Position numbers and translations under genes: made by a program. A model generated the notes under the pieces. It saw only the letters and a program-made list of their open reading frames with translations, did not search any database and had not been told where the DNA came from. A stretch of 63,978 nt of DNA, the filler included, from Stramenopiles sp. TOSAG23-2 (taxonomy: Eukaryota), in assembly GCA_900128395.1 (NCBI GenBank). It is 3 parts of 3 records of this genome, joined end to end, with 100 filler letters (N's around TTAATTAATTAA, not from the genome) between each part and the next. Parts side by side here need not be neighbours in the genome. Positions count along the whole stretch, not along the records: positions 1 to 21,820 come from LT649527.1; 2 more parts are not named here. One strand, given 5' to 3'. This document shows positions 1-63,236 of this stretch, piece by piece. Numbering within the stretch: the stretch's first letter is position 1; each line of letters begins with the position of its first letter.

Positions 1-24
1 AGCCACATGTATTTATTATTTAAG

Positions 25-1031
25 ACCCTATAGCTAAAAATCCTCAAAAAACAACGACGACAATAACACCAATAGTAGAAACAACAACAAGAAAAGGAGC
101 TTTAATTGGAACTACTACTTCAACACCAGCAGTTGTACAAACGAGCACAATTTTATCTACAACACAAGTAGCTCGTCCTGTAACCACTAGTAGTAGCACT
201 ACTACTACTACTACGTTGCCCCCACATATGCATACAAGTACACCTTTCCCTGAAATTGAAAATATTATTATTGAGCAAAAAATTGAGTTTCGTGGCACTA
301 CAAAGGAAAAGCTAGAAGCAAGCAAAAACCAAGTAGAAAAAGCATTGGCAAAATCATTAGGTGTAGCAGTTGAAACTGTAAATATTATTGATATTATTGA
401 AGTTCAAAAAAGAAGAAGGATTTTATTAGGAATATACGTGGAAGTTATTTATGAAGTAGATGTAAAAGATGATGTAGAAGCACAACGTCTTGAATTAGCT
501 ATGAAGGCAGGCGAATTTAAATCTACCATTAATAATAACATTCAAACTGAAACACCAGATTTAAAAGCAACTGTAGAAAGTATCGAGGAACCAAAAGTGA
601 CGAAAAACTACAAAAAGAAAAATTCAGATAAAAAAATTATTGAAGACAACAATGATAATGGCCAAGTTAATACTAATAATGATACAAGAAATAAAAATAA
701 AACGATGGAAATTGTAATTATTTCAGTTATAATAATATCCGTAATTTTATGTGTAGTAGGTGGAATTATAATTTACTATTGTTTTATGAAACAAAACAAT
801 GGGTCTGATGATGAATTAAAAAACGATTTGAAAAATGAGCATAAAAGAAGAAACACATGGGATTTAAGTACAATTGAGTTAAATAATCGAAATAATCCCC
901 GGAAGCAACAGAAGAAGGCAAAACAAATGAGAAACAAAAATGGTAGAGATAAAACACCATCTACATTTAGTTTAAATCCAGTCAGAGCTTCTGCAATTGG
1001 TTTTGCAATAGATGATAAATTGACAAAATAG
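25..1031 (+). CDS. 3' exon of a single-pass membrane protein (Thr-rich stalk, SEA-like 'RRRILL' domain, TM helix, cytoplasmic tail); 5' part lies outside the window
   Basis: The frame of ORF 216..1031 stays open back to ~24 and reads Thr-rich (KTTTTITP...TTTTTL). Possible AG acceptors at 23-24 or 32-33. Hydrophobic segment IVIISVIIISVILCVVGGIIIYYCF. Confidence 0.65.
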
Positions 1032-1051
1032 TGTGTGTGTGTGTGTGTGTG
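1031..1051. repeat. (GT)n microsatellite
   Basis: gtgtgtgt... run directly after the stop codon. Confidence 0.9.
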
Positions 1052-1447
1052 AGATTCGTGGTTTTTACTACGTTTTTGTGTGTTGTCGTTGGTAGAGAAT
1101 TGTAAAAAAAAAAATACGAAGGACAAATCATATATATATATAAATATTTAATAAGAGTGAAAAACATGTGTGTAAAATTGAAAAGCACATCAAAATCTGT
1201 CTGTTTTAGATATATATACTGTGTAATGATTTGCTTTTTCTTGATTGATGTGTGTGTGTATACTAATTACTGATTTTATTAAATTTATACAATACACACA
1301 CTTACATAAAAATATAAAAATGGGAGTTTTGATTTTTTACTGTAAAAATAGCATAGCCTTACAGATGCTTTTTCAGTTTGATTCATCTGTTTTAAGGTGC
1401 GTTTGCGGAGTCCTATTCCCTTGCTAAAAAATGAAATTTTTTTATTA

Positions 1448-1684
1448 TGTGTAATCTGTGGTAGAAAAAAGAAAAAGGAAACAAATATAAATACTACAAA
1501 AATTGTTCCTATAAGTGAAGAGTCGCAAAGGCTAATGAAAGTGAAGCAATTACAACAAATGCAACAATTAAGAAGTATTAGAGTGAAGTATGGTGCAGAT
1601 AGTGAAGAATACAAAAATGCAATTGATTTAAATACGGAAAAAGGTAATTTTAATAATAAAATTAATCCGCAGCAAGATGTTTAA
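1448..1684 (+). CDS. C-terminal fragment of a small protein (CVICGRKKKK...QQDV); 5' end uncertain
   Basis: Protein-like ORF 1397..1684 with no ATG start. The second copy (11699-11944) has a different upstream flank that reads ...TCACCCVICGRK, like a Cys-rich juxtamembrane segment. Confidence 0.4.
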   Translation, partial: CVICGRKKKKETNINTTKIVPISEESQRLMKVKQLQQMQQLRSIRVKYGADSEEYKNAIDLNTEKGNFNNKINPQQDV

Positions 1685-1880
1685 ATGAAACAGAATAAAA
1701 ATCCATTTGGGATTTGGGAGTAAAAATTAAAAAAAAATAAATGTGCGTTTAAACGTAAATCGGAGTAAAAAAAATTACCGATCATAAAATTTTAAAACTA
1801 TATTATACGAAAGGTTCGGTACAAAAGTTTTTAACGCTTCGTACTTCGTAACAAGTAAAACGTAAAACATTTTTTACATT

Positions 1881-3251
1881 TTAACACGGTGTTTGACACC
1901 AAATATACTCTTCACCTCCATATCCGCAACTATTGACACATGTATAAATATATAACCCACCCCAATCAATTTCGCCAGGGCCTGTTACATTTTCAATATT
2001 CAAATATGATAATAACTGCGGCATTATTTGAAATTCAAATTGACGCAATCCATTGCAATATGGACACTTGGGTATAGTTTCTAATACATTTGGTCGATTT
2101 GTATCACTACAAAACAATTCTTCCCCAGGTTGCCATCGAGCATAACGCAATATTTGATCTTTAGCAATATCAATACGGTAATGAAAGTAAGTCATGCTTT
2201 TATCTAAACTTTTACTAACAATAGTTGTATTATTACTTTTATTGCTATTTGAATCACCAGTTAATTTTTTTTTGACATCACTGACACATATTGCATTCAT
2301 CACATTGTCTATATCATTCTGTGTAATAGCCACATCTTCTTCTTCTTCTTCCTCCTCCTCTCCTTCTTCTGCTTTTTTCGGCCTTTGAACTTGTTCCTCA
2401 ATAACGTCTTTAAATTTATCAGTAATTGCAGCATTTGCATCCTTTAAGCAATCTGTTTCCAATTCAGACATGATTTCATATATTTTAAATTGAAAAGTAT
2501 CTAGACAATTTGTATCATGTTCATTATCGTTATCAAAAATAGTACGTTCATCATTAAATTCATCATAGGGATATATATCATTCTTCCGTGGCAACTGTGA
2601 TCTGATTATTCGAAATCCATTATGACCACCTTTTTTTAAACATTTTTCATTTTTGCAACAAAAAGCATAAATTGTGCGATGAAAAGCATTTGGCTTATGG
2701 ATTTCATCATCTATTGGTGCATACAATTGCAATAAAAATAACATATTAGCACCACAAACATTGCATGCAAGTTGTTTTTTACTTGGCTTCTTATTGGGAT
2801 TCAACCATATTGGTTTCCCACCTACATGTCCACCATCCCACATAACCCAATTTTTATTAGTATGTGTATGAATCATTTTCTTTATTGAGCCTTTGTACTC
2901 ATCTTCACAAAATCCTAAATCAACTGTAACATTTTCATTCGTTATATCTGATGGTTGAATCAACAACACTTTTTGTAACAATTTGTTGTAGATTTTTTTT
3001 GTCAGATGGCCATCGTATATATCAATATCACGATCGTACTTTTCTTGAATATTTTTCTTATTGTTTTTAAAATCATTTAATTTATCATTTTTCCATTTTA
3101 ATAACTGTTTCCTGTATTTATTTACATTATTAATTTTTGTAATATTATCCTTATTATTATTATTTATACTAGTATTATTATTTTTATTATTATCATTGTT
3201 GTTGTTCTTCTTCTTCTTAATATCATTATTTTGTACGGTCAATGATGCCAT
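1881..3251 (-). CDS. PDCD2: PDCD2/Tsr4-family protein (uS5 chaperone), copy 1
   Basis: GGKPIWL...CxxCG..M.FLLQLYAP...FHRTIY.FCC N-terminal motif. C-terminal QILRY...IPKCPYC...FEFQIMPQLL...DWG.LYIYTC (PDCD2_C). No MYND finger seen, so it may be PDCD2-like. Confidence 0.88.
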   Translation of the reverse strand: MASLTVQNNDIKKKKNNNNDNNKNNNTSINNNNKDNITKINNVNKYRKQLLKWKNDKLNDFKNNKKNIQEKYDRDIDIYDGHLTKKIYNKLLQKVLLIQPSDITNENVTVDLGFCEDEYKGSIKKMIHTHTNKNWVMWDGGHVGGKPIWLNPNKKPSKKQLACNVCGANMLFLLQLYAPIDDEIHKPNAFHRTIYAFCCKNEKCLKKGGHNGFRIIRSQLPRKNDIYPYDEFNDERTIFDNDNEHDTNCLDTFQFKIYEIMSELETDCLKDANAAITDKFKDVIEEQVQRPKKAEEGEEEEEEEEDVAITQNDIDNVMNAICVSDVKKKLTGDSNSNKSNNTTIVSKSLDKSMTYFHYRIDIAKDQILRYARWQPGEELFCSDTNRPNVLETIPKCPYCNGLRQFEFQIMPQLLSYLNIENVTGPGEIDWGGLYIYTCVNSCGYGGEEYIWCQTPC

Positions 3252-3723
3252 AATTCCTTTCCCACGCTTTCTTTCTATATGTAGTAGTTGTAGTAAAATG
3301 TATTGACGTTTTTAAATATCTTCCATTACAATTGATATGTATATTAATGTATATATTTATTATTTTTTGTTTGTTGTTGGCCAGAGTTGGGCGGCCTTTT
3401 TTTTTATTATTTATTATGTTATTTGCTGTTATTTGCCTGGTTGTTTTTTGAGGATTTTTAGCTATAGGGTCTTAAATAATAAATACATGTGGCTTTTTCC
3501 AGCTAGTAGGAACAATATATATTGTATTAACAATCACACCAACATGCGTAAAAAAAATAAAAATTTATTGAAAAATCATATACAAGTATATATATATGTC
3601 GTCATGTACTTCAGTAGAGATATACTACCTCTGGAAATACGATTTATCTGTACACTATAATATATTACGAGTCTAATAAATACTTGACCGACCGTAATGT
3701 TAGAAATATCACGCCCTTTTGTT

Positions 3724-6700
3724 TTACAACTTTGATGCTACAACAGTTCCATTAAGATGATTGTTGTTCCGTTCAACAATCATAACTCTTCCAACATCAC
3801 CATCAACAGTAACCATATCCCCATCTTCCACAATTTGCATCGCATTGGTACAATTTGTTACACAAGGAACTTTGGATTCTCTGCATACTATAAATATATA
3901 TATATACGTATATATAATAAGGAAAATGAATAAAAGAAAGTAGTTGTTGTTAGTATTCATGACATAGTATATGTATATATATTGATTAAGTTCAATCAAA
4001 TATGTATATATATATATATAAATATATTAGTATATATCAATAGTTACATACCTATGGCAGCATGGCTAAGCGTCCCACCAACTTCAGTCACACACGCACC
4101 AGCTTTTGACATGATAAGTGTAAAACTACTGTTTGTAAATTCGCTAAAAATAATTTCTCCTCTTTGCACAAGCATAAAATCTGCTGCACTTCTAATCATC
4201 CTCGCTTTACCAGTATATTTACCTTTGGAGCCAGAATCACCATGTAAGATATTAACACCAGGTATATTCTTATCATTGTATAAACTCATGTTACTATCAC
4301 TCACTTTTGCAATATCAGCAAGACCAAGGATGATTTGGCGCACATTTTTATCTCCAATAATTGGGCTAATAAACTCTGTTACGCCACTTGTCCTACCTTT
4401 GTATGGGCCATTAATTGAGGAAGGCGCATGTGAAAGTAATGTTTGCATTGAATATACATATCGATATTGCAATTTCTCATCCAAATTATCTAATAAAACG
4501 CTATCATCATCATTTATTGCAGATTCATTTTTCAAAAGTGCAATCAATTCATTCTCTGTAATAAATAAAATATGATTGATGTCATGTAAGATAATCCTTT
4601 GAGCATTTTTATGATCATCGTTTTTCCTATTTTTTAAAAATCGTTTTCCTACTGTAAATAATGCTCTACGTAAGATTCCAGCAGCCCACTGCATAAAATT
4701 TCAATGTAAAAATAGCATGTAAAGTTAGGGAGATGGAAACATGTAAATATATATTACATATATATAGCTCTACTATAATAGAAATTATAAACTTACCACA
4801 TCGCTATAAAGGCTTCTTTCATCACGTAAACGATGACATTTATGGGCATCCTCCATTAACTCTAACCATTCTTCTTGCTTTGATCGTATAATTTTTTTTA
4901 ATGCAGCTTTTACATTTTCATCATGTTTTAAGCGAAACATTTCTATATCATCATTAATTATTTTCCAAGCAGCACTAGCAAGTATACCAGGCATTTCTCT
5001 CCCACTGAAAAATGTTATATCGTATCCACCAACTTGGCGATACCAATTTTCATTTAAATATTGTTTCATACTTTCCCGAATTTCTATAGAGTAATTCGAA
5101 TCATTTTGTAATTTATTTAAAATTAGTAAAATTCTTTTATCTTGATCACTTTTTGACAATGAGGTGTCATCTGATATTTCAACAGCATGTCTCAGCAATT
5201 CAAGCGCATCCATATTCTTCACATTTAAAAATGCAGAACGTAAATATTTACCGGCTGAGTGTTCATATACTTGCTCTTTTAAATTCCCCTCTAACAATTC
5301 ATATGCATCAATCTGACTAAGTCCATTTTCACTACTAAATCTTAGAAAAAAATTCACTGGTAACATAGCTGCAGAATTAAATCGATGATGATTGAAAGCA
5401 CAAAATCGAAAATGATTTATTACATCTAAGACATAATTTAACAGATCTTCTGAGGATAACAATGCTTCCGGATCAATGTTAGATAATTTGTTATGCGTTT
5501 TAATCAACTCAGGCCTTCTTTCATTGTCCCAAAACTCTAAATCCTTTAACCATTTTTTATTTTGTAATACTTCTTTGCATTTGCTTTTAAATGATATTGC
5601 AGCTGGTACAAGATTAAACATTATTTTGGTAGCTAATTGCAAAACTAATGTTGGTGTCCATTGGAAGAAAATGTTTGTAAACAACTGTCCAATTGTTGGT
5701 AATTTAGATGACAAATGTTCGTCGCTCCATCCTTCGTTTAATTCTTTTTCAGTATCATCACCAAGGTACATGAAACCATTAATAAATTTTCCCGGAGGTG
5801 CAAAATCACTAATAGAATCAGGCAAATAGGAACCAATATCAGCTTTAATTGCAGCTGCAAATTGGCTTTCATAGCAGTTAGTGAATAATGGAGTACTATA
5901 TATATATATATATGTAATTGTTTTGATTTTGCGGCAAAGACAATACATATATTGTTAGAAAAATGAAAATATAAAAAAGAGAAATACAGCAGGATGTAAA
6001 TGAAATACTTACTGTGGTCGTATGAAATGTTCATTTAATTTCCATGACTCTCCAGGTTTTCCTGGATTTATAAACTCCATAGCTTCCGCAGCATCATAAT
6101 TTGGTTCTACAGAAGTTACAGGCCTTGATTGGAGTAAATATAAATATCCAACTGCATCAACTGCAAATTCAATGTCTTGCGGTATTTCATTGTATAAGTC
6201 TAATAATTTATTGCCATAATTTGATAATATTATTAATTGCTCCTGTGTTAAAGAAGATCGATATTTTAAATGATCTGGCAATTGTTTTTTAACCCAATGA
6301 CTATCAGTATTACTTTGATTATGACTATTTGCATTATTATTATTATTACTACTACTATGGGAATTGTTGAAAATAATATCATAATAATACTCTTTAACAA
6401 CAATTTCACGTACTAAAAGTTTGCCATCTTTTCTTCTTATTAAATATTTATCAGCAGATAGACTGCCGCTGACATAACCTTCCCCTTGGCCAAAAACGCT
6501 TTCAACGGTAAACTCAGTTATGCCCCCACTATTGACATTCAATGTAAACATTACCCCAGATGCTTTGGAATCGACTTGCACTTGGATGACCACTGCCATT
6601 ATAGGCTTTACACTCGTGAGAATCTTACCATCATTTAATTGCTTCAAATAAAAATATACATTTGGCATCCACAACGACGCCCAACATTTTTTTAAACTCT

Positions 6701-7148
6701 TAAAAACTTCATCTTCATTCGATTGGCCTAAAAATGTATCAAAAATGCCTGCAAACGATGCGGAAGCGCCATCTTCAACTGTTGCACTAGATCGAACGCT
6801 GACAGGCATATTATCATTAGCCTTTAAAAAAGTGCGTATTTTATTTTTGCAATATTCACTCAGTGATTTTGATATAATTTTGTTTGAAATATCTTTATAC
6901 AATTGTAAATCATTTTTTTCATTATGACCAATATGTCTATACAAGTAAGCTATTTGGCTATTCAAACCATCTATTGAATTGACATGGTGTTTATACAAAT
7001 CTGTTGCGCATAATAAAGCATTTGGTACTGGCTGAAATTGCGAATTGACAAAAGCGGAAGCTATTAGCTTTAAATTAAAACCCTTTCCACCAAGCTTAGA
7101 TGCGTCTAATGTATCAATTAATGCAGCTTCCTCAAGTGTGTACAACAT
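3724..7148 (-). CDS. PEP-utilising phosphotransferase with rifampin phosphotransferase/PigC architecture (ATP-grasp, substrate domain, His-swivel), 4 exons, ~1011 aa, copy 1
   Basis: Exons 7148-6013, 5895-4797, 4688-4052, 3887-3724, all GT-AG, total 3036 nt in frame. Motifs GGKG, VRSSATVED..ASFAG, SGVMFT, DIEFA, LLQSRPVT. Splicing rebuilds EHFIRPHTPLF, LYSDVWAAG and the phospho-His motif GGTLSHAAIVCRE. Confidence 0.9.
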
Positions 7149-8047
7149 GTTTTATATACCAGAAAAACAAGATAAATAAATAAATATTACATATATATAT
7201 ATATATATATATACGTATATAACTTTTCTTTCTCTCCGTGCACTGGATAAAGTTGTTTGTAAATGATACAAAATGATGGATTGATTTAAGATATGTATAT
7301 ATATATATCTAGATAGCTGTAGGACAGAAATATTATTAAATACATTTATATTTTATTATTTATTTCAATTTAGCTTCTGCTTCATCATCATCAATGAAGG
7401 AAGAAAGGGTATTTTTTAATTCTAAATTCAATACTAAGGCGTAGAGTACACGCGAAGTTTCGTTTGCAAAGACCCTTAAAGTTTGCGAAGTCTGTATGGT
7501 AATGCCATTATAAAAAACCTTATTTTCTCCAGTTTTTTAATCAATTTTTGCACATTATTTTAGTCTATAGTAAACAGTGTTATTTTATTTTTAAAACCGG
7601 TTTTAAAACCGGTTTGTAATTTTAGTCCTTTTTTCAGTGCTATTTACATAGTAGCCAATTTGAGACCATGTCTGTGTACGGAAGGCCTAAGTTTTCTCGG
7701 ACAAACTCTATAGGTAAGTATAAATTTTAATACTCTAACAGAAAAATTCGGACAGAATGGCAGAATGGCCAAAAAAAAGATTCCGGAATATTCATAGACT
7801 ACAGACAGGACAGTATTAATGCTATAAAATGTACTTGATATATTTTGATACACAAACACTTAAAAAACAACAGACCACTTTTCATCAACCAGAAAAGAAC
7901 TTCTTTCTGTCGTATTACTACTCCCCTAACAAGTACAGTACATCATAAGTGAACAGAAATGAAATAAATACATGTGTAGGAATTTTATTAAACACACACC
8001 CATATATATATATATATATCGTATATATTTCATTTCATAATTAAAAA

Positions 8048-11000
8048 TCATATTGTTACAAATTGCAAACCATCAGTTAAGAAATTCTTTAAATGTAAAA
8101 AATGTTTTGAACTACTTGAAAATAAGTCCGTTTGAGTTTCAATGACTTTGCAATAATCATTTAACTCTTTCATACGAGCAGCTAAAAATTCTGCATCATA
8201 GGAATGGAACCATGTTTTTGCAGGCAAACCGGACGCGACAATAATATTGTTCTCCATTAAATAATCATTTAAGCTGTAAAAATCAGAGACACGACGATAA
8301 ACAGCCCATTGATTTGGCGTTGGTTCAATTTGATGGATTTCCAGTAAATATTGTGCAAATTTCCTTCCTTGTTCTTTTTCCTTTGCAACTTGGACAAACG
8401 AAATTTGCAATTCTAATTTACAATCTGGTGGCATAATCGAGTCTAATTCTCTGTTTATATCACGATATTGTTGCACAACTTTGCGGCGTATTGCTAAAAC
8501 GGCATCTTTATGTACACCAATTCCATGTTGTACTTGCTCAACATATTTAACATTATTCTTACCAAATAATTCTTGACAAGCATCAATACGAGATTTTAAA
8601 TTTTGCAAGATCTCTTGTTGAACTTGAACATGATTATGCAAGGATGTCTCATACATTAAAGTGGATTCGTTTGCTTTATCATAACTAGCAGATTGCAAAT
8701 AACAGTTTCTCCAAAACACAATAGAGGATGGTAACTTGGATGGTTTAATAACCATATCGAATGTTTCATTTGGTTGATATTTAAGATTCTCAAAATACAA
8801 CAAATTTTCTTTCACAAAAGACCATATATCAATGCTTTCAAATCCATTCTCTTCTTCCCTTTCTTTTTCATTATTATATAAAAAATTCCCGAATATACCA
8901 GAATATAGATGTATGCTTAAAAAGATCAACAAATTTTCATTAAATTCAAAACGATGTGGAAATTGGTTATATACTTGGAAAACAACATCTAACCATTGCA
9001 AAAATATAGGCGAAAAGTCACGCCCAGATCCTCGATTTACATCACTATTCCTTCGATCAAATTGGTGACCAAAACAACACCACTCTTTCTCAATTAAGGT
9101 TGCAAAACCATGTATGGTTCGATAATGACTATCCATCAATAATTGTGTAGTGGCGCATATTTGGGGTGTACGATCCCAGCCATCACTACAATGGACAATA
9201 GATGGATGTCCAGCCTCCAAAGCATCGGTAACAAGACTAGTGCCATGCAATATAGAAAATATATGCTGCAACCATTGTGTCTGCCCTATGTCGGAATAAA
9301 AATTGAATTGCGCAGTAAAATTTTTCGCATCTAATAATTTTCGACACGTTAACATTACGTTGATCAATGAATTTCGCACTGTATGAATATTCTCGATACC
9401 AAGAAAATTCAGTTTTGCAAAATCTTCACCACCTAATGAACTAATATTTTCATAACCTTTACCGGCAATTGTGTTGCCCATTGCATTGATCCATGGCCTG
9501 GCATCAAATACGTGTAATACTTTATGATTTTGACCACCGGAAATGTGATAAGTATTATCATCTTCTCCACCATATAGATCTATACAATTTCGAATTGCTG
9601 TAAGAACCTTACGATCTGCAGTAGAATGTCCACCTATAATTCCTGTTAATGGTTGAGAGCAACGGCATAAGCATGCTCCATTTTTTTGATTTATCCAACA
9701 CAGGGCTACGAAGCGATTTTTACTTCTAAATTTAGCAGATTTCTTTAAAGTGATTGTATCGATTGAACGAGGGATTGCTAGCAACTTTGGGTATGTTGGG
9801 CACAATTTAAAATCCATATTTTCATTTGTTATTTTCCAATATGAATTATTTGCAAGTATACCAAGACGTGCAAAATCCAATTTTACCCGCCTTTGACCAT
9901 TGCTTATCTTATCATGATCAAATTCAAATTCGTTATTTATTTTATCAATAGACGACGACGACGATGTTTCTCCTGTTTCTTCCTTTGTAGAGTTGAATTT
10001 CATTCGGCATTGTTGTAAATCTCTTCTATATGTATTAGTTTCATCCCCCATTAAAGACAAAAATAATGAATATGCATATCCTCTTTCTGCAATCCTCCAA
10101 CGCACTTCTTCCACCAAACGTTGTGCAGCCATTTGTACGGCTTTGATCCATATCTTTGGATCTAATGCAAGCGATTTTCTTTGTTTTGCTGCTTTAACAA
10201 TCATACTATTAGTCGCTATTCCCAAAGATTGAATATTTTCCTTAGCTTTGATATAAAATATCCGTGTATCAACATCTTTACAAGTAAATGTAATGGTCTT
10301 AATTAAACGTTGTCGATGGCCGTCTTGACCATATTGTATTTTAGAGTAATGCTTTTCATTTGTAACATATTTTAAATCAATAGCAGAGATATTACCATAC
10401 CATAAACTAAATGCTTTGACGTATATAATATCTTTAACTGATGTATCTTCATACGGGCAAAATACGATTCTATATTGAGTTGCATATAATGAGCCTAGAT
10501 TACCCATGTGATTTACTTCTTCAACAATATCTAGAACCACTTCACCATCTCCTGGAAATACTTTGGATGGATTGTTATTATCTGTTCCTCCTTCAAATTT
10601 AAAATAAAGGCTTGGAAATGCCAATACAGGGCATATAGATATCAGCGTACCAAACTTTGTTTCCCGTTTCTCAAAATCACGATCTAAATTAATTAAAGAA
10701 GCAATATTATTGTTACTACTAATACTATTAATATTAGCGATAGAAGCAGTATTAATCGGACTATCGTTCAACTTATTTGCATTGCGCCAAATTAATTCGA
10801 TATGAATTTCTCCTTCCGCTGTTGAAGGTCTTACTAATTTATGCCAAGCATCTTTGTATATATGATTTTCCTCAGCGTAGTGCACAAACACCCTACAGCT
10901 TCCAAGTAAATCATCAGCATTTGTATTATCCCTATCGTAGACATCAATGATAAAATATGTGGTATTTTTATCTTGTAAAGCAGACAATGGTAGTTGAAAC

Positions 11001-11263
11001 CTTTCATTCCATGTTGGATTTAAATTGTTTTTTATAACAGTAGTTTCACCGAACTTTCTAGTAAAAATTTCACCACCTGTATGGCAAAGTAAAGACAACT
11101 TACAATATGGATCTGACTTTCCAGTTAAATCCGCATTTTTTAAATTCCTTGCTCCCACAACATGTACTTCTAAAACAACTGGGACCGGCAATACATCATT
11201 ATTATTTATTTGTGGAATGGTTTTGTAATTATTATTATTATTATTATTATTATGATCGTCCAT
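8048..11263 (-). CDS. Myotubularin-family phosphoinositide 3-phosphatase with N-terminal C2, PH-GRAM-like and C-terminal PX-like domains, copy 1
   Basis: Intact catalytic VHCSDGWDRT plus CPTYP, RSKNR, CRCSQP, DARP, EKEW..FGH.F, SPIFLQWLD. C2 motif ARNL..AD..GKSDPYC...NLNPTWNE. PX-like W.VYRRVSDF..L...LPAK. Start placed at ATG 11263. Confidence 0.93.
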   Translation of the reverse strand: MDDHNNNNNNNNYKTIPQINNNDVLPVPVVLEVHVVGARNLKNADLTGKSDPYCKLSLLCHTGGEIFTRKFGETTVIKNNLNPTWNERFQLPLSALQDKNTTYFIIDVYDRDNTNADDLLGSCRVFVHYAEENHIYKDAWHKLVRPSTAEGEIHIELIWRNANKLNDSPINTASIANINSISSNNNIASLINLDRDFEKRETKFGTLISICPVLAFPSLYFKFEGGTDNNNPSKVFPGDGEVVLDIVEEVNHMGNLGSLYATQYRIVFCPYEDTSVKDIIYVKAFSLWYGNISAIDLKYVTNEKHYSKIQYGQDGHRQRLIKTITFTCKDVDTRIFYIKAKENIQSLGIATNSMIVKAAKQRKSLALDPKIWIKAVQMAAQRLVEEVRWRIAERGYAYSLFLSLMGDETNTYRRDLQQCRMKFNSTKEETGETSSSSSIDKINNEFEFDHDKISNGQRRVKLDFARLGILANNSYWKITNENMDFKLCPTYPKLLAIPRSIDTITLKKSAKFRSKNRFVALCWINQKNGACLCRCSQPLTGIIGGHSTADRKVLTAIRNCIDLYGGEDDNTYHISGGQNHKVLHVFDARPWINAMGNTIAGKGYENISSLGGEDFAKLNFLGIENIHTVRNSLINVMLTCRKLLDAKNFTAQFNFYSDIGQTQWLQHIFSILHGTSLVTDALEAGHPSIVHCSDGWDRTPQICATTQLLMDSHYRTIHGFATLIEKEWCCFGHQFDRRNSDVNRGSGRDFSPIFLQWLDVVFQVYNQFPHRFEFNENLLIFLSIHLYSGIFGNFLYNNEKEREEENGFESIDIWSFVKENLLYFENLKYQPNETFDMVIKPSKLPSSIVFWRNCYLQSASYDKANESTLMYETSLHNHVQVQQEILQNLKSRIDACQELFGKNNVKYVEQVQHGIGVHKDAVLAIRRKVVQQYRDINRELDSIMPPDCKLELQISFVQVAKEKEQGRKFAQYLLEIHQIEPTPNQWAVYRRVSDFYSLNDYLMENNIIVASGLPAKTWFHSYDAEFLAARMKELNDYCKVIETQTDLFSSSSKHFLHLKNFLTDGLQFVTI

Positions 11264-11442
11264 GCTGGAGATACAAAAAAAAAATGATTCCCTATACAAT
11301 AACTTTTCTTATTCGTTTTCCTGAGCCTGAGCTGAGATCGTATAGAGAGTGATAATCTAAGTTGTAGTTTGTGCCTCCTTCATCATATATATATATATTT
11401 GTTTTTAATAATGATCCATGATCCACAAATAATACGTACCCC

Positions 11443-11484
11443 GATATAATTTTTAGTGTGCCGGCCAGTCGTAAATTTTCGGTA
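11443..11484 (-). repeat. 42-bp dispersed element, copy 1
   Basis: The reverse complement TACCGAAAATTTACGACTGGCCGGCACACTAAAAATTATATC is identical to 43849-43890. Confidence 0.9.
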
Positions 11485-12140
11485 TACTTAAACACTATAT
11501 TTAACTATCAAACACACAAATTAATCCAAAACTCAACCACTCGAAAACCTGAAAACCGACTGTTTTGTTGTTGTTGTTGTTGTTGTTTTTGTTTCTTGTT
11601 GTTGTTGTATTAGCTTATCTTTCTTTCATCAGTTTACAATAATAAATAGTTTATCTTGTGGCCCTTTTTTCTAGCATTATTTGACATGTGCATGTTGTTG
11701 TGTAATCTGTGGTAGAAAAAAGGAAAAGGAAACAAATATAAATACACTACAAAAATTGTTCCTATAAGTGAAGAGTCGCAAAGGCTACCAGGTAATGAAA
11801 GTGAAGCAATTACAACAAATGCAACAATTAAGAAGTATTAGAGTGAAGTATGGTGCAGATAGTGAAGAATACAAAAATGCAATTGATTTAAATACGGAAA
11901 AAGGTAATTTTAATAATAAAATTAATCCGCAGCAAGATGTTTAAATGAAACAGAATAAAAATCCATTTGGGATTTGGGAGTAAAAATTAAAAAAAAATAA
12001 ATGTGCGTTTAAACGTAAATCGGAGTAAAAAAAATTACCGATCATAAAATTTTAAAACTATATTATACGAAAGGTTCGGTACAAAAGTTTTTAACGCTTC
12101 GTACTTCGTAACAAGTAAAACGTAAAACATTTTTTACATT

Positions 12141-13511
12141 TTAACACGGTGTTTGACACCAAATATACTCTTCACCTCCATATCCGCAACTATTGACACA
12201 TGTATAAATATATAACCCACCCCAATCAATTTCGCCAGGGCCTGTTACATTTTCAATATTCAAATATGATAATAACTGCGGCATTATTTGAAATTCAAAT
12301 TGACGCAATCCATTGCAATATGGACACTTGGGTATAGTTTCTAATACATTTGGTCGATTTGTATCACTACAAAACAATTCTTCCCCAGGTTGCCATCGAG
12401 CATAACGCAATATTTGATCTTTAGCAATATCAATACGGTAATGAAAGTAAGTCATGCTTTTATCTAAACTTTTACTAACAATAGTTGTATTATTACTTTT
12501 ATTGCTATTTGAATCACCAGTTAATTTTTTTTTGACATCACTGACACATATTGCATTCATCACATTGTCTATATCATTCTGTGTAATAGCCACATCTTCT
12601 TCTTCTTCTTCCTCCTCCTCTCCTTCTTCTGCTTTTTTCGGCCTTTGAACTTGTTCCTCAATAACGTCTTTAAATTTATCAGTAATTGCAGCATTTGCAT
12701 CCTTTAAGCAATCTGTTTCCAATTCAGACATGATTTCATATATTTTAAATTGAAAAGTATCTAGACAATTTGTATCATGTTCATTATCGTTATCAAAAAT
12801 AGTACGTTCATCATTAAATTCATCATAGGGATATATATCATTCTTCCGTGGCAACTGTGATCTGATTATTCGAAATCCATTATGACCACCTTTTTTTAAA
12901 CATTTTTCATTTTTGCAACAAAAAGCATAAATTGTGCGATGAAAAGCATTTGGCTTATGGATTTCATCATCTATTGGTGCATACAATTGCAATAAAAATA
13001 ACATATTAGCACCACAAACATTGCATGCAAGTTGTTTTTTACTTGGCTTCTTATTGGGATTCAACCATATTGGTTTCCCACCTACATGTCCACCATCCCA
13101 CATAACCCAATTTTTATTAGTATGTGTATGAATCATTTTCTTTATTGAGCCTTTGTACTCATCTTCACAAAATCCTAAATCAACTGTAACATTTTCATTC
13201 GTTATATCTGATGGTTGAATCAACAACACTTTTTGTAACAATTTGTTGTAGATTTTTTTTGTCAGATGGCCATCGTATATATCAATATCACGATCGTACT
13301 TTTCTTGAATATTTTTCTTATTGTTTTTAAAATCATTTAATTTATCATTTTTCCATTTTAATAACTGTTTCCTGTATTTATTTACATTATTAATTTTTGT
13401 AATATTATCCTTATTATTATTATTTATACTAGTATTATTATTTTTATTATTATCATTGTTGTTGTTCTTCTTCTTCTTAATATCATTATTTTGTACGGTC
13501 AATGATGCCAT
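12141..13511 (-). CDS. PDCD2: PDCD2/Tsr4-family protein, copy 2
   Basis: Translation identical to 1881..3251. Confidence 0.85.
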   Translation of the reverse strand: MASLTVQNNDIKKKKNNNNDNNKNNNTSINNNNKDNITKINNVNKYRKQLLKWKNDKLNDFKNNKKNIQEKYDRDIDIYDGHLTKKIYNKLLQKVLLIQPSDITNENVTVDLGFCEDEYKGSIKKMIHTHTNKNWVMWDGGHVGGKPIWLNPNKKPSKKQLACNVCGANMLFLLQLYAPIDDEIHKPNAFHRTIYAFCCKNEKCLKKGGHNGFRIIRSQLPRKNDIYPYDEFNDERTIFDNDNEHDTNCLDTFQFKIYEIMSELETDCLKDANAAITDKFKDVIEEQVQRPKKAEEGEEEEEEEEDVAITQNDIDNVMNAICVSDVKKKLTGDSNSNKSNNTTIVSKSLDKSMTYFHYRIDIAKDQILRYARWQPGEELFCSDTNRPNVLETIPKCPYCNGLRQFEFQIMPQLLSYLNIENVTGPGEIDWGGLYIYTCVNSCGYGGEEYIWCQTPC

Positions 13512-13983
13512 AATTCCTTTCCCACGCTTTCTTTCTATATGTAGTAGTTGTAGTAAAATGTATTGACGTTTTTAAATATCTTCCATTACAATTGATATGT
13601 ATATTAATGTATATATTTATTATTTTTTGTTTGTTGTTGGCCAGAGTTGGGCGGCCTTTTTTTTTATTATTTATTATGTTATTTGCTGTTATTTGCCTGG
13701 TTGTTTTTTGAGGATTTTTAGCTATAGGGTCTTAAATAATAAATACATGTGGCTTTTTCCAGCTAGTAGGAACAATATATATTGTATTAACAATCACACC
13801 AACATGCGTAAAAAAAATAAAAATTTATTGAAAAATCATATACAAGTATATATATATGTCGTCATGTACTTCAGTAGAGATATACTACCTCTGGAAATAC
13901 GATTTATCTGTACACTATAATATATTACGAGTCTAATAAATACTTGACCGACCGTAATGTTAGAAATATCACGCCCTTTTGTT

Positions 13984-16900
13984 TTACAACTTTGATGCTA
14001 CAACAGTTCCATTAAGATGATTGTTGTTCCGTTCAACAATCATAACTCTTCCAACATCACCATCAACAGTAACCATATCCCCATCTTCCACAATTTGCAT
14101 CGCATTGGTACAATTTGTTACACAAGGAACTTTGGATTCTCTGCATACTATAAATATATATATATACGTATATATAATAAGGAAAATGAATAAAAGAAAG
14201 TAGTTGTTGTTAGTATTCATGACATAGTATATGTATATATATTGATTAAGTTCAATCAAATATGTATATATATATATATAAATATATTAGTATATATCAA
14301 TAGTTACATACCTATGGCAGCATGGCTAAGCGTCCCACCAACTTCAGTCACACACGCACCAGCTTTTGACATGATAAGTGTAAAACTACTGTTTGTAAAT
14401 TCGCTAAAAATAATTTCTCCTCTTTGCACAAGCATAAAATCTGCTGCACTTCTAATCATCCTCGCTTTACCAGTATATTTACCTTTGGAGCCAGAATCAC
14501 CATGTAAGATATTAACACCAGGTATATTCTTATCATTGTATAAACTCATGTTACTATCACTCACTTTTGCAATATCAGCAAGACCAAGGATGATTTGGCG
14601 CACATTTTTATCTCCAATAATTGGGCTAATAAACTCTGTTACGCCACTTGTCCTACCTTTGTATGGGCCATTAATTGAGGAAGGCGCATGTGAAAGTAAT
14701 GTTTGCATTGAATATACATATCGATATTGCAATTTCTCATCCAAATTATCTAATAAAACGCTATCATCATCATTTATTGCAGATTCATTTTTCAAAAGTG
14801 CAATCAATTCATTCTCTGTAATAAATAAAATATGATTGATGTCATGTAAGATAATCCTTTGAGCATTTTTATGATCATCGTTTTTCCTATTTTTTAAAAA
14901 TCGTTTTCCTACTGTAAATAATGCTCTACGTAAGATTCCAGCAGCCCACTGCATAAAATTTCAATGTAAAAATAGCATGTAAAGTTAGGGAGATGGAAAC
15001 ATGTAAATATATATTACATATATATAGCTCTACTATAATAGAAATTATAAACTTACCACATCGCTATAAAGGCTTCTTTCATCACGTAAACGATGACATT
15101 TATGGGCATCCTCCATTAACTCTAACCATTCTTCTTGCTTTGATCGTATAATTTTTTTTAATGCAGCTTTTACATTTTCATCATGTTTTAAGCGAAACAT
15201 TTCTATATCATCATTAATTATTTTCCAAGCAGCACTAGCAAGTATACCAGGCATTTCTCTCCCACTGAAAAATGTTATATCGTATCCACCAACTTGGCGA
15301 TACCAATTTTCATTTAAATATTGTTTCATACTTTCCCGAATTTCTATAGAGTAATTCGAATCATTTTGTAATTTATTTAAAATTAGTAAAATTCTTTTAT
15401 CTTGATCACTTTTTGACAATGAGGTGTCATCTGATATTTCAACAGCATGTCTCAGCAATTCAAGCGCATCCATATTCTTCACATTTAAAAATGCAGAACG
15501 TAAATATTTACCGGCTGAGTGTTCATATACTTGCTCTTTTAAATTCCCCTCTAACAATTCATATGCATCAATCTGACTAAGTCCATTTTCACTACTAAAT
15601 CTTAGAAAAAAATTCACTGGTAACATAGCTGCAGAATTAAATCGATGATGATTGAAAGCACAAAATCGAAAATGATTTATTACATCTAAGACATAATTTA
15701 ACAGATCTTCTGAGGATAACAATGCTTCCGGATCAATGTTAGATAATTTGTTATGCGTTTTAATCAACTCAGGCCTTCTTTCATTGTCCCAAAACTCTAA
15801 ATCCTTTAACCATTTTTTATTTTGTAATACTTCTTTGCATTTGCTTTTAAATGATATTGCAGCTGGTACAAGATTAAACATTATTTTGGTAGCTAATTGC
15901 AAAACTAATGTTGGTGTCCATTGGAAGAAAATGTTTGTAAACAACTGTCCAATTGTTGGTAATTTAGATGACAAATGTTCGTCGCTCCATCCTTCGTTTA
16001 ATTCTTTTTCAGTATCATCACCAAGGTACATGAAACCATTAATAAATTTTCCCGGAGGTGCAAAATCACTAATAGAATCAGGCAAATAGGAACCAATATC
16101 AGCTTTAATTGCAGCTGCAAATTGGCTTTCATAGCAGTTAGTGAATAATGGAGTACTATATATATATATATATGTAATTGTTTTGATTTTGCGGCAAAGA
16201 CAATACATATATTGTTAGAAAAATGAAAATATAAAAAAGAGAAATACAGCAGGATGTAAATGAAATACTTACTGTGGTCGTATGAAATGTTCATTTAATT
16301 TCCATGACTCTCCAGGTTTTCCTGGATTTATAAACTCCATAGCTTCCGCAGCATCATAATTTGGTTCTACAGAAGTTACAGGCCTTGATTGGAGTAAATA
16401 TAAATATCCAACTGCATCAACTGCAAATTCAATGTCTTGCGGTATTTCATTGTATAAGTCTAATAATTTATTGCCATAATTTGATAATATTATTAATTGC
16501 TCCTGTGTTAAAGAAGATCGATATTTTAAATGATCTGGCAATTGTTTTTTAACCCAATGACTATCAGTATTACTTTGATTATGACTATTTGCATTATTAT
16601 TATTATTACTACTACTATGGGAATTGTTGAAAATAATATCATAATAATACTCTTTAACAACAATTTCACGTACTAAAAGTTTGCCATCTTTTCTTCTTAT
16701 TAAATATTTATCAGCAGATAGACTGCCGCTGACATAACCTTCCCCTTGGCCAAAAACGCTTTCAACGGTAAACTCAGTTATGCCCCCACTATTGACATTC
16801 AATGTAAACATTACCCCAGATGCTTTGGAATCGACTTGCACTTGGATGACCACTGCCATTATAGGCTTTACACTCGTGAGAATCTTACCATCATTTAATT

Positions 16901-17408
16901 GCTTCAAATAAAAATATACATTTGGCATCCACAACGACGCCCAACATTTTTTTAAACTCTTAAAAACTTCATCTTCATTCGATTGGCCTAAAAATGTATC
17001 AAAAATGCCTGCAAACGATGCGGAAGCGCCATCTTCAACTGTTGCACTAGATCGAACGCTGACAGGCATATTATCATTAGCCTTTAAAAAAGTGCGTATT
17101 TTATTTTTGCAATATTCACTCAGTGATTTTGATATAATTTTGTTTGAAATATCTTTATACAATTGTAAATCATTTTTTTCATTATGACCAATATGTCTAT
17201 ACAAGTAAGCTATTTGGCTATTCAAACCATCTATTGAATTGACATGGTGTTTATACAAATCTGTTGCGCATAATAAAGCATTTGGTACTGGCTGAAATTG
17301 CGAATTGACAAAAGCGGAAGCTATTAGCTTTAAATTAAAACCCTTTCCACCAAGCTTAGATGCGTCTAATGTATCAATTAATGCAGCTTCCTCAAGTGTG
17401 TACAACAT
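13984..17408 (-). CDS. RPH/PigC-like PEP-utilising phosphotransferase, copy 2 (exons 17408-16273, 16155-15057, 14948-14312, 14147-13984)
   Basis: Same ORFs and splice sites as copy 1, shifted by 10260. Confidence 0.87.
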
Positions 17409-18308
17409 GTTTTATATACCAGAAAAACAAGATAAATAAATAAATATTACATATATATATATATATATATATACGTATATAACTTTTCTTTCTCTCCGTG
17501 CACTGGATAAAGTTGTTTGTAAATGATACAAAATGATGGATTGATTTAAGATATGTATATATATATATCTAGATAGCTGTAGGACAGAAATATTATTAAA
17601 TACATTTATATTTTATTATTTATTTCAATTTAGCTTCTGCTTCATCATCATCAATGAAGGAAGAAAGGGTATTTTTTAATTCTAAATTCAATACTAAGGC
17701 GTAGAGTACACGCGAAGTTTCGTTTGCAAAGACCCTTAAAGTTTGCGAAGTCTGTATGGTAATGCCATTATAATAAAACCTTATTTTCTCCAGTTTTTTA
17801 ATCAATTTTTGCACATTATTTTAGTCTATAGTAAACAGTGTTATTTTATTTTTAAAACCGGTTTTAAAACCGGTTTGTAATTTTAGTCCTTTTTTCAGTG
17901 CTATTTACATAGTAGCCAATTTGAGACCATGTCTGTGTACGGAAGGCCTAAGTTTTCTCGGACAAACTCTATAGGTAAGTATAAATTTTAATACTCTAAC
18001 AGAAAAATTCGGACAGAATGGCAGAATGGCCAAAAAAAAGATTCCGGAATATTCATAGACTACAGACAGGACAGTATTAATGCTATAAAATGTACTTGAT
18101 ATATTTTGATACACAAACACTTAAAAAACAACAGACCACTTTTCATCAACCAGAAAAGAACTTCTTTCTGTCGTATTACTACTCCCCTAACAAGTACAGT
18201 ACATCATAAGTGAACAGAAATGAAATAAATACATGTGTAGGAATTTTATTAAACACACACCCATATATATATATATATATCGTATATATTTCATTTCATA
18301 ATTAAAAA

Positions 18309-21300
18309 TCATATTGTTACAAATTGCAAACCATCAGTTAAGAAATTCTTTAAATGTAAAAAATGTTTTGAACTACTTGAAAATAAGTCCGTTTGAGTTT
18401 CAATGACTTTGCAATAATCATTTAACTCTTTCATACGAGCAGCTAAAAATTCTGCATCATAGGAATGGAACCATGTTTTTGCAGGCAAACCGGACGCGAC
18501 AATAATATTGTTCTCCATTAAATAATCATTTAAGCTGTAAAAATCAGAGACACGACGATAAACAGCCCATTGATTTGGCGTTGGTTCAATTTGATGGATT
18601 TCCAGTAAATATTGTGCAAATTTCCTTCCTTGTTCTTTTTCCTTTGCAACTTGGACAAACGAAATTTGCAATTCTAATTTACAATCTGGTGGCATAATCG
18701 AGTCTAATTCTCTGTTTATATCACGATATTGTTGCACAACTTTGCGGCGTATTGCTAAAACGGCATCTTTATGTACACCAATTCCATGTTGTACTTGCTC
18801 AACATATTTAACATTATTCTTACCAAATAATTCTTGACAAGCATCAATACGAGATTTTAAATTTTGCAAGATCTCTTGTTGAACTTGAACATGATTATGC
18901 AAGGATGTCTCATACATTAAAGTGGATTCGTTTGCTTTATCATAACTAGCAGATTGCAAATAACAGTTTCTCCAAAACACAATAGAGGATGGTAACTTGG
19001 ATGGTTTAATAACCATATCGAATGTTTCATTTGGTTGATATTTAAGATTCTCAAAATACAACAAATTTTCTTTCACAAAAGACCATATATCAATGCTTTC
19101 AAATCCATTCTCTTCTTCCCTTTCTTTTTCATTATTATATAAAAAATTCCCGAATATACCAGAATATAGATGTATGCTTAAAAAGATCAACAAATTTTCA
19201 TTAAATTCAAAACGATGTGGAAATTGGTTATATACTTGGAAAACAACATCTAACCATTGCAAAAATATAGGCGAAAAGTCACGCCCAGATCCTCGATTTA
19301 CATCACTATTCCTTCGATCAAATTGGTGACCAAAACAACACCACTCTTTCTCAATTAAGGTTGCAAAACCATGTATGGTTCGATAATGACTATCCATCAA
19401 TAATTGTGTAGTGGCGCATATTTGGGGTGTACGATCCCAGCCATCACTACAATGGACAATAGATGGATGTCCAGCCTCCAAAGCATCGGTAACAAGACTA
19501 GTGCCATGCAATATAGAAAATATATGCTGCAACCATTGTGTCTGCCCTATGTCGGAATAAAAATTGAATTGCGCAGTAAAATTTTTCGCATCTAATAATT
19601 TTCGACACGTTAACATTACGTTGATCAATGAATTTCGCACTGTATGAATATTCTCGATACCAAGAAAATTCAGTTTTGCAAAATCTTCACCACCTAATGA
19701 ACTAATATTTTCATAACCTTTACCGGCAATTGTGTTGCCCATTGCATTGATCCATGGCCTGGCATCAAATACGTGTAATACTTTATGATTTTGACCACCG
19801 GAAATGTGATAAGTATTATCATCTTCTCCACCATATAGATCTATACAATTTCGAATTGCTGTAAGAACCTTACGATCTGCAGTAGAATGTCCACCTATAA
19901 TTCCTGTTAATGGTTGAGAGCAACGGCATAAGCATGCTCCATTTTTTTGATTTATCCAACACAGGGCTACGAAGCGATTTTTACTTCTAAATTTAGCAGA
20001 TTTCTTTAAAGTGATTGTATCGATTGAACGAGGGATTGCTAGCAACTTTGGGTATGTTGGGCACAATTTAAAATCCATATTTTCATTTGTTATTTTCCAA
20101 TATGAATTATTTGCAAGTATACCAAGACGTGCAAAATCCAATTTTACCCGCCTTTGACCATTGCTTATCTTATCATGATCAAATTCAAATTCGTTATTTA
20201 TTTTATCAATAGACGACGACGACGATGTTTCTCCTGTTTCTTCCTTTGTAGAGTTGAATTTCATTCGGCATTGTTGTAAATCTCTTCTATATGTATTAGT
20301 TTCATCCCCCATTAAAGACAAAAATAATGAATATGCATATCCTCTTTCTGCAATCCTCCAACGCACTTCTTCCACCAAACGTTGTGCAGCCATTTGTACG
20401 GCTTTGATCCATATCTTTGGATCTAATGCAAGCGATTTTCTTTGTTTTGCTGCTTTAACAATCATACTATTAGTCGCTATTCCCAAAGATTGAATATTTT
20501 CCTTAGCTTTGATATAAAATATCCGTGTATCAACATCTTTACAAGTAAATGTAATGGTCTTAATTAAACGTTGTCGATGGCCGTCTTGACCATATTGTAT
20601 TTTAGAGTAATGCTTTTCATTTGTAACATATTTTAAATCAATAGCAGAGATATTACCATACCATAAACTAAATGCTTTGACGTATATAATATCTTTAACT
20701 GATGTATCTTCATACGGGCAAAATACGATTCTATATTGAGTTGCATATAATGAGCCTAGATTACCCATGTGATTTACTTCTTCAACAATATCTAGAACCA
20801 CTTCACCATCTCCTGGAAATACTTTGGATGGATTGTTATTATCTGTTCCTCCTTCAAATTTAAAATAAAGGCTTGGAAATGCCAATACAGGGCATATAGA
20901 TATCAGCGTACCAAACTTTGTTTCCCGTTTCTCAAAATCACGATCTAAATTAATTAAAGAAGCAATATTATTGTTACTACTAATACTATTAATATTAGCG
21001 ATAGAAGCAGTATTAATCGGACTATCGTTCAACTTATTTGCATTGCGCCAAATTAATTCGATATGAATTTCTCCTTCCGCTGTTGAAGGTCTTACTAATT
21101 TATGCCAAGCATCTTTGTATATATGATTTTCCTCAGCGTAGTGCACAAACACCCTACAGCTTCCAAGTAAATCATCAGCATTTGTATTATCCCTATCGTA
21201 GACATCAATGATAAAATATGTGGTATTTTTATCTTGTAAAGCAGACAATGGTAGTTGAAACCTTTCATTCCATGTTGGATTTAAATTGTTTTTTATAACA

Positions 21301-21524: not shown

Positions 21525-21703
21525 GCTGGAGATACAAAAAAAAAATGATTCCCTATACAATAACTTTTCTTATTCGTTTTCCTGAGCCTGAGCTGAGATC
21601 GTATAGAGAGTGATAATCTAAGTTGTAGTTTGTGCCTCCTTCATCATATATATATATATTTGTTTTTAATAATGATCCATGATCCACAAATAATACGTAC
21701 CCC

Positions 21704-21745
21704 GATATAATTTTTAGTGTGCCGGCCAGTCGTAAATTTTCGGTA
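21704..21745 (-). repeat. 42-bp dispersed element, copy 2 (inside the large duplication)
   Basis: Identical to 11443-11484. Confidence 0.9.
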
Positions 21746-21820
21746 TACTTAAACACTATATTTAACTATCAAACACACAAATTAATCCAAAACTCAACCA
21801 CTCGAAAACCTGAACTCCAG

Positions 21821-21920
21821 NNNNNNNNNNNNNNNNNNNNNNNNNNNNNNNNNNNNNNNNNNNNTTAATTAATTAANNNNNNNNNNNNNNNNNNNNNNNN
21901 NNNNNNNNNNNNNNNNNNNN
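21821..21920. other. Artificial contig linker
   Basis: 100-nt N run with a central TTAATTAATTAA (stops in all six frames). Confidence 0.98.
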
Positions 21921-43738: not shown

Positions 43739-43838
43739 NNNNNNNNNNNNNNNNNNNNNNNNNNNNNNNNNNNNNNNNNNNNTTAATTAATTAANNNNNN
43801 NNNNNNNNNNNNNNNNNNNNNNNNNNNNNNNNNNNNNN
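43739..43838. other. Artificial contig linker
   Basis: 100-nt N run with a central TTAATTAATTAA. Confidence 0.98.
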
Positions 43839-63193: not shown

Positions 63194-63236
63194 AATGTTG
63201 AGGTTGCTTGCTTATGCACAATATTGTTATTATTAT

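Follow-up and report, generated by a model that had tools for sequence, protein, structure and literature searches.

The locus at 7148..3724 (minus strand) of the window, the whole stretch of 63,978 nucleotides of DNA from Stramenopiles sp. TOSAG23-2 that was analysed, raises the question of whether a protein built like bacterial rifampin phosphotransferases (RPH) is genuinely encoded by a eukaryote and, if so, what kind of enzyme it is. To our knowledge, the small-molecule dikinases in print are bacterial and archaeal enzymes that act on very few substrates, namely rifamycins, some phenolics and prodiginine precursors. The gene has four exons separated by three GT..AG introns; quite probably it is native to an AT-rich and intron-poor eukaryote and encodes, in a product of 1011 residues, a single-chain dikinase of the RPH superfamily that is catalytically competent and acts on a small molecule.

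The exon and intron borders are predictions from the DNA sequence and from protein alignment. Exon 1 (7148..6013; all features of the gene are on the minus strand) begins with the ATG at 7148, which is preceded one codon upstream by a stop codon, and codes residues 1-378 and two bases of codon 379, a region comprising the full ATP-grasp domain and the start of a linker. It is followed by intron 1 (6012..5896; 117 nt, phase 2, GTAAGT..TATAG, GC content 0.22) and by exon 2 (5895..4797; residues 379-745), which holds the helical core of the middle domain, putatively the substrate-binding part, and ends with the motif RLRDER. Intron 2 (4796..4689; 108 nt, phase 0, GTAAGT..TGCAG) separates it from exon 3 (4688..4052; residues 746-957 and base 1 of codon 958), coding the remaining middle domain and the first half of the swivel domain with GGTLSH954AAI. 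Intron 3 (4051..3888; 164 nt, phase 1, GTATGT..TATAG), which has (TA)n runs, precedes exon 4 (3887..3724; residues 958-1011), coding the second half of the swivel up to the TAA stop codon at 3726..3724. Scripted joining of the exons yields 3036 nt, corresponding to 1011 codons and the stop. The GC content of the introns is 0.17-0.23 versus 0.33 in the exons, and reading through any of the three introns leads to an in-frame stop within three codons.

The splice junctions can be compared with close relatives of the spliced protein, P0002 (65% identity), P0152 (46%) and P0001 (43%), all of which are uninterrupted open reading frames (ORFs). P0152 and P0001 align without gaps over all three junctions and P0002, which starts after junction 1, over junctions 2 and 3. 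The residues at the junctions are conserved (His or Gln at 379, Val or Ile followed by Trp at 745/746, Val at 958), and the Pfam PEP-utilizers profile is broken exactly between its positions 39 and 40, at the boundary of exons 3 and 4. A first-pass annotation of this DNA had proposed a four-exon gene with three canonical AT-rich introns and a 1011-residue product; its coordinates and length match, and the gapless junctions agree with it. It had also placed an intron inside the swivel motif just after the catalytic His, and intron 3 indeed begins 10 nt after the His954 codon (4064..4062) and splits the Val codon 958, four residues past His954. Antisense to exon 3 there is an open frame of 213 codons (3934..4575, plus strand), which is probably a by-product of coding-strand composition; no support for it as a gene was found.

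The product is organized as an N-terminal ATP-grasp domain, a helical middle region of about 530 residues and a C-terminal phospho-His swivel domain. In Pfam, exon 1 matches PPDK_N (PF01326) with an E-value of 6.2e-56 over profile positions 3-314 of 328, and its motifs VRSSATVED..SFAG and PQDIEFAVD..LLQSRPVT align with the phosphoenolpyruvate (PEP) synthase 8a8e, the top single PDB match of this exon (1.6e-31). The swivel profile PEP-utilizers (PF00391) is shared between exon 3 (positions 2-39 of 72, 4e-07) and exon 4 (positions 40-72 of 72, 3e-07). Its motif GGTLSH954AAIVCRE is identical in P0002, P0152 and P0001, and the protein ends 57 residues beyond His954. A chance match is excluded because PPDK_N is found at 6e-56 and each half of the swivel at about 1e-7. 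The PEP/pyruvate TIM barrel (PF02896) is absent, in the Pfam scan, from every exon and from P0001, P0152 and P0002. Exon 1 aligns to the N-termini of the NCBIfam models for RPH, PigC and RedH and exons 3-4 align to their last ~110 positions, which identifies the same domain order as in these enzymes. The order read initially from the DNA, ATP-grasp, large central domain and C-terminal swivel with no TIM barrel, is thus borne out by the Pfam and NCBIfam alignments. Note that a low-complexity insert rich in Asn and Ser (6297..6351, ~residues 266-284; 24-nt periodic repeat) occupies a variable ATP-grasp loop coded by exon 1, where relatives of the protein have a different sequence.

This domain order bears directly on the possibility that the protein is a PEP synthase, a pyruvate phosphate dikinase (PPDK) or a glucan water dikinase of central or starch metabolism. 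Exon 1 lends it some colour, with 8a8e as its top PDB match and the PEP synthase/PPDK model NF005057 matched at 2e-49. However, PF02896 is missing, the swivel is C-terminal instead of central and, with exons scanned separately for all NCBIfam cut-off scores given here, the models for PEP synthase and PPDK (TIGR01418, NF005057, TIGR01828) reach 168 bits versus a cut-off of 598 and 155 versus 740. The eight true PpsA proteins included in the ATP-grasp tree described below form an outgroup with 96% support. In glucan water dikinases the nucleotide domain follows the His domain and is C-terminal, and starch-binding modules are present; no such module was found in the Pfam scan of the exons. A role of this type is improbable in the extreme.

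The nature of the enzyme hinges on the middle domain, whose kinship is not visible to plain sequence searches. Exon 2 (366 residues) has no Pfam, NCBIfam or PDB match by such searches, the Pfam version used being one without PF27448 (Rph_4th), and no usable match in the Atlas; PADLOC gave no match for exon 1, exon 2 or P0001. A word-indexed protein search with exon 2 returned a single protein, P0001, among 3715 candidates. HMMER, run exhaustively over 1.84 billion cluster representatives, gave 174 proteins at E<=1e-3, of which 23 reach <=1e-10 and two reach <=1e-30; these two are P0002 and a fragment with 99% identity. The rest are almost all proteins of ~550-570 residues, with the domain at ~residues 100-340 and a swivel domain behind it. 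They are similar to PRK08296-type models at scores below the cut-off, and several can also be aligned through their middle part with the corresponding part of the PRK06241, RedH and RPH models.

Comparison of profiles and structures leads to the substrate domain of RPH. The middle regions alone of the group around the window protein and of 60 fused proteins, which were picked via their ATP-grasp domain and hence independently of the middle domain, align in hhalign with 97.6% probability and an E-value of 3.5e-12 over 383 columns. The hidden Markov model (HMM) of alignment A1, compared with the PDB, has RPH of Listeria monocytogenes (RPH-Lm) as its top match (2.5e-44), with extra stretches in RPH residues 529-616 (5.7e-4) and 679-746 that lie inside the rifampin-binding domain; PEP synthase, PPDK and enzyme I are matched in the swivel domain only. 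The Atlas model of P0001 superposes on a bacterial PPDK_N+Rph_4th+PEP-utilizers cluster, with 788 residues aligned (template modelling (TM) scores 0.65/0.78), and also on a 557-residue PEP-utilizers+Rph_4th cluster (0.51/0.88). The RLRDER motif (residues 734-739) is invariant in A2 (12/12 rows) and at least 90% conserved in A1 (70 rows), and it aligns with an Arg-Glu..basic block of the fused proteins. In RPH, Stogios et al. (PMC4844700) describe this block as catalytic, phosphate-contacting and retained even in distant clades. Taken together, the hhalign result, the stretches matched by the A1 HMM, the Atlas match of P0001 and the RLRDER block identify the middle domain, by sequence and model comparison, as a very distant homologue of the RPH substrate domain (Rph_4th). 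The relationship of the central domain to RPH-type substrate domains on which the first-pass annotation depended is therefore real.

Structure prediction of exon 2 fits less tightly. The AlphaFold2 model, built with 70 aligned sequences, is all-helical (predicted local distance difference test score 85.9, predicted TM score 0.78), and its top PDB fold match in Foldseek is again RPH-Lm (5hv2, probability 0.92). This match is weak. Several points of this kind weigh against the assignment proposed here and are best considered together. The Foldseek comparison of the exon 2 model with RPH has an E-value of 0.08, a TM score of 0.30 and 12-15% identity, and E<=1e-3 was reached by none of at least 500 Foldseek matches of the model. 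The middle domain is only ~13% identical to the RPH-type consensus, and the precomputed Pfam annotation of P0001 and P0152 is without PF27448. The hhalign comparison with the two-component H-type set discussed below gives an E-value of 1.2e-56, inflated by the selection of that set by similarity to exon 2. The two phylogenetic trees come from quick searches, and long branches and skewed composition affect them, also for the spliced protein itself. Finally, P0002, P0152 and P0001 carry no taxon: they and the spliced protein may belong to an older family passed down vertically in eukaryotes, or P0001 and P0152 may be prokaryotic proteins.

The family models and the trees define how close the relationship to RPH is. 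An exon 1 search among longer proteins gave P0152 (3.8e-72) and P0001 (4.7e-64), followed by a gap to 1.7e-34. The 120 exon 1 matches listed comprise 107 with PF27448, eight with the PpsA TIM barrel and five with neither, P0152 and P0001 being among these five. In the ATP-grasp tree (67 rows) the spliced protein, P0152 and P0001 form a clade (99%), hereafter the window clade, which stands apart from the eight true PpsA proteins (96%) and from 16 two-component partner subunits (100%). It nests among dikinases other than PpsA, nearest to the fused proteins P0161, P0069 and P0125 (supports 83 and 93, below the starred level). The tree of the central and swivel parts (56 rows) has a split with 100% support between 20 fused PF27448-type proteins and 36 other rows. 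The first side includes the three proteins nearest to RPH (P0230, P0244, P0259) and two of the seven proteins passing the NF004881 cut-off, while the second is made of 30 H-type subunits, P0069, P0125 and the window clade (99%), whose sister is P0151 (97%). The H-type rows were chosen by similarity to exon 2, and the rows of the trees include no HpeH, CreH, phenylphosphate-synthase PpsA, PigC or RedH sequence.

A true orthologue of RPH that inactivates rifamycins and shields the eukaryote from them would have the three-domain order seen here, would be expected to retain the Arg/acidic/basic motif resembling block 9, as the window protein does, and would find RPH-Lm at the top of the PDB matches, as do the A1 profile and the exon 2 model. 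Against this stand the scores of NF041857 (RIF_Ptrans_rph), with 132 bits for exon 1, 28 for exon 3 and none for exon 2 versus a cut-off of 999, and of NF000283, with 78 and 18 bits versus 1700. The identity to RPH-Lm in the Foldseek alignment is 12-15%, and the fully supported split in the central and swivel tree separates the protein from P0230, P0244 and P0259. The RPH study (PMC4844700) places the validated RPH clade, clade A, at more than 42% identity to RPH-Lm and gives a clade N protein as conferring no resistance. Of the twelve sequence blocks that bind rifampin, just the motif resembling block 9 was seen in the window protein. Orthology to RPH is very unlikely. More generally, the HpeH-like substrate domain, the failed cut-offs and the position in the tree make specificity for rifamycins appear unlikely.

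The same body of evidence applies to a condensing enzyme like PigC or RedH, which would activate a pyrrole aldehyde for synthesis of a prodiginine-type compound. The domain order is alike, exon 1 matches the PigC model NF052631 at 1e-43 and the RedH model NF052632 at 1e-39, and exons 3-4 align to the C-termini of both. The corresponding 149.5 and 136.1 bits are nevertheless far from the cut-offs of 1300 and 1350, exon 2 matches neither model, and the contig has PDCD2 and myotubularin genes with no biosynthetic neighbours, so that the alternative is barely credible.

The affinity to RPH, PigC and RedH claimed in the first-pass annotation consequently needs rewording. It stands for the domain order and for the homology of the middle domain to the RPH type, and the separation from PpsA in the ATP-grasp tree goes in the same direction. 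It does not extend beyond the superfamily level: all cut-offs are missed and the protein falls on the HpeH-like side of the tree, among HpeH-like subunits and not among RPH-like proteins. ATP-grasp domain, His swivel, middle domain homologous to Rph_4th and absence of a TIM barrel are all found, and the protein is assigned by its sequence to the superfamily of RPH-type small-molecule dikinases, its nearest predicted kin being the HpeH-like subunits of two-component dikinases.

Bacterial relatives of the middle domain were sought with a pattern of the RLRDER region, which has 215 sites in 185,579 prokaryotic species genomes; 162 of these sites encode relatives. They belong mostly to Acidimicrobiales/Ilumatobacter and Myxococcota, with some in NC10, Rokubacteria and others, and the best 80 of the 162 are 22-29% identical to exon 2. 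A prokaryotic genome scan with P0001 alone had none of its 28 pattern matches confirmed as relatives. In the best 80 loci the ORF span that carries the domain is 412-883 residues long; an ATP-grasp domain upstream in the same ORF was found in none of the 80, and an ATP-grasp gene lies directly downstream on the same strand in 22. The two partner subunits scanned (from loci L009 and L010) match only PPDK_N profile positions 76-318 and have a cyclic nucleotide monophosphate (cNMP)-binding domain. Since the partners carry a partial PPDK_N and their ATP-grasp gene is separate and downstream, the eukaryotic protein is not a simple fusion of such a pair. From sequence comparison, its ancestor would seem to have been fused already, in the manner of P0069 or P0125.

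The bacterial loci have features of their own. In PADLOC, the C-terminal cNMP-binding domain of the partner ATP-grasp subunits has a match (~1e-15) to the sensor part of Pycsar TIR effectors, and in Variovorax an adenylate/guanylate cyclase like Pycsar cyclases (~1e-17) is found upstream (coordinates for these observations: L009 6377-7627, L010 6377-7633 and L057 979-4194). This organization suggests a putative cyclic-nucleotide-controlled two-component dikinase in bacterial relatives. In Ilumatobacter nonamiensis (L001 1338-4466 and 6386-7621) the H-type gene is followed by a major facilitator superfamily (MFS) transporter gene instead of an ATP-grasp gene and is preceded by a homologue of type IV methyl-directed restriction enzymes (PADLOC, 1e-255).

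Kinship to H-type subunits gives some weight to a kinase of phenols like HpeHI, CreHI or phenylphosphate synthase PpsAB, here in one chain, that would trap or activate phenolics. The middle and swivel module groups with these subunits in the tree and in hhalign, and the characterised two-component members phosphorylate phenolic hydroxyls (PMC12167813). On the other hand, HpeH, CreH and PpsA sequences lie outside the compared set, so that the kinship is to H-type subunits generally; the bacterial relatives are distant, at the 22-29% identity given above for the best 80 of 162; the loci examined adjoin a cNMP-binding ATP-grasp partner, a cyclase or an MFS transporter, and not aromatic-catabolism genes; and the ATP-grasp domain falls outside the group of partner subunits. 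An enzyme of exactly this type is rather unlikely. For the RPH-superfamily dikinase favoured here, a phenolic substrate is a reasonable guess by analogy with the two-component kin.

The mode of action of such a dikinase can be modelled on those of RPH (PMC4844700) and HpeHI (PMC12167813). The ATP-grasp domain would bind ATP and phosphorylate His954 of the swivel, by homology with these enzymes. The phospho-swivel would then move to the helical middle domain, where the phosphate would be handed to a hydroxyl of the small molecule bound there, the expected products being AMP, phosphate and the phosphorylated substrate. MarK (PMC12624787), considered as a further candidate for comparison, was set aside: it is a member of another family and produces ADP.

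Is the gene native to the eukaryote? The alternative is that the locus is contaminating bacterial DNA, a chimera of the assembly or a dead pseudogene. Such doubt is fed by the construction of the window, three contigs joined by two artificial spacers (44 N, TTAATTAATTAA, 44 N) at 21821..21920 and 43739..43838, with the consequence that only genes at 1..21820 are physically linked to the dikinase gene, and by the position of this gene in a near-identical tandem unit ending close to a contig end. The contig at 1..21820 codes an unannotated ORF, a PDCD2_C gene, the dikinase gene and a myotubularin/C2/PX gene. A 10.1-kb unit (1448..11553) with the PDCD2-like, dikinase and myotubularin genes is repeated in tandem at 11699..21814; the copies are 99.89% identical over 10116 columns, with one mismatch and three small gaps, all outside the dikinase gene, whose second copy (13984..17408, minus strand), absent from the first-pass annotation, is identical to the first by string comparison. 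The second unit stops 6 nt before the contig end, because of which a recent tandem duplication and an assembly artefact, either of which it could be, are indistinguishable here.

The composition of the gene itself is host-like. Its GC content at third codon positions is 0.236 versus 0.22-0.30 in ten neighbouring ORFs, and its relative synonymous codon usage correlation is 0.92 versus 0.84-0.96. Contamination is excluded, since three spliceosomal-type introns with in-frame stops, host-like codon usage and linked eukaryotic genes on both sides in the same contig coincide in the locus. The argument from introns made at the outset is hence strengthened by codon usage and by the PDCD2 and myotubularin genes. 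The dikinase frame is uninterrupted with all catalytic motifs intact, and P0003, a 147-residue fragment 99% identical to the protein, and the 65%-identical P0002 are found in independent records. From its sequence the gene is probably functional, and an artefact or a pseudogene is highly improbable as an explanation.

The other two contigs of the window contain BEACH, TERT, kinase, EF-hand and tRNA-synthetase genes. The BEACH-domain protein (23352..31535, minus strand) is coded by 2727 uninterrupted codons and the telomerase reverse transcriptase (59831..63211, minus strand) by 1126; such very long uninterrupted frames point to an intron-poor genome. A class II asparaginyl/aspartyl-tRNA synthetase with a WHEP domain (44262..46106, plus strand) has matches at 100, 92, 77 and 74% identity, and its best taxon-labelled matches (42-54%) are mostly from stramenopiles and plants, with one glomeromycete fungus; the host lineage appears to be sparsely represented among labelled sequences. 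An Rfam scan of the window gave no match.

How the gene reached the eukaryote is suggested by the names of its relatives. Source names among the 120 exon 1 matches listed are all bacterial or archaeal, and no named eukaryotic relative is among the listed matches, filtered by shared words, from a protein database that includes EukProt, MMETSP and NCBI eukaryotes. Horizontal acquisition, as had been put forward, is therefore likely. The sequence data make likely a bacterial origin followed by residence in the host for long enough to gain introns and host codon usage. Some invertebrate genomes have proteins with PPDK_N and PEP-utilizers domains under the annotation 'PEP synthase', which is why a eukaryotic member is not considered unprecedented here. 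The literature search found no eukaryotic homologue described, and passages on 'PEP synthase' in mites and rotifers leave the kind of protein unspecified. A possible but doubtful extension is that the spliced protein, P0002, P0152 and P0001 form a eukaryote-restricted clade, stemming from one old transfer of a fused HpeH-type gene and having a specificity of its own, for example the trapping or inactivation of phenolic or antibiotic metabolites that a bacterivorous protist encounters. The range of the family would be widened by a native eukaryotic member that has introns and a divergent substrate domain, and such a member would give a tractable case of a foreign enzyme settling in a eukaryotic genome. 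The finding opens no new mechanism and its value is moderate.

Compared with known systems, the window protein resembles the PigC/RedH prodiginine ligases in its domain order and in terminal domains that align to both models, and differs from them in scores of about a tenth of the cut-offs, an unmatched middle domain and the lack of pathway context. It shares with RPH-Lm (5FBS/5FBT/5FBU, 5HV1-3) and the PRK06241 group a single chain that runs from ATP-grasp through a large helical substrate domain to a C-terminal His swivel and lacks a TIM barrel; among PDB entries its central and swivel profile matches RPH-Lm best, and the Arg/acidic/basic motif like block 9 is kept. It differs from RPH-Lm in a middle domain of only ~13-15% identity and in scores far below the NCBIfam cut-offs; unlike the RPH-like fused proteins, its close relatives have no PF27448 annotation, and it lies across the deepest split of the central and swivel tree, is eukaryotic and bears introns. 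The two-component dikinases (HpeHI, CreHI, phenylphosphate synthase PpsAB and PRK08296-like H subunits) provide the nearest match to its middle and swivel module, which is of H type, with homology that begins at the N-terminal motif PGPGSW of the H subunits, aligned to NPGKPGESW of the window protein. They differ in that the window protein is a single spliced ORF with the ATP-grasp domain fused in front and the three parts together, and in that this domain is complete (3-314, versus 76-318 and a cNMP-binding domain in the two partners scanned) and groups with fused proteins. The nearest full-length matches outside the clade, P0069 (868 residues; 26% identity, blastp 9e-75) and P0125 (1304 residues; 25%, 6e-70), have low identity and are not its sister in the central and swivel tree, but they share with the window protein the fused order and the H-like middle domain and stand near its clade in the ATP-grasp tree (93%).

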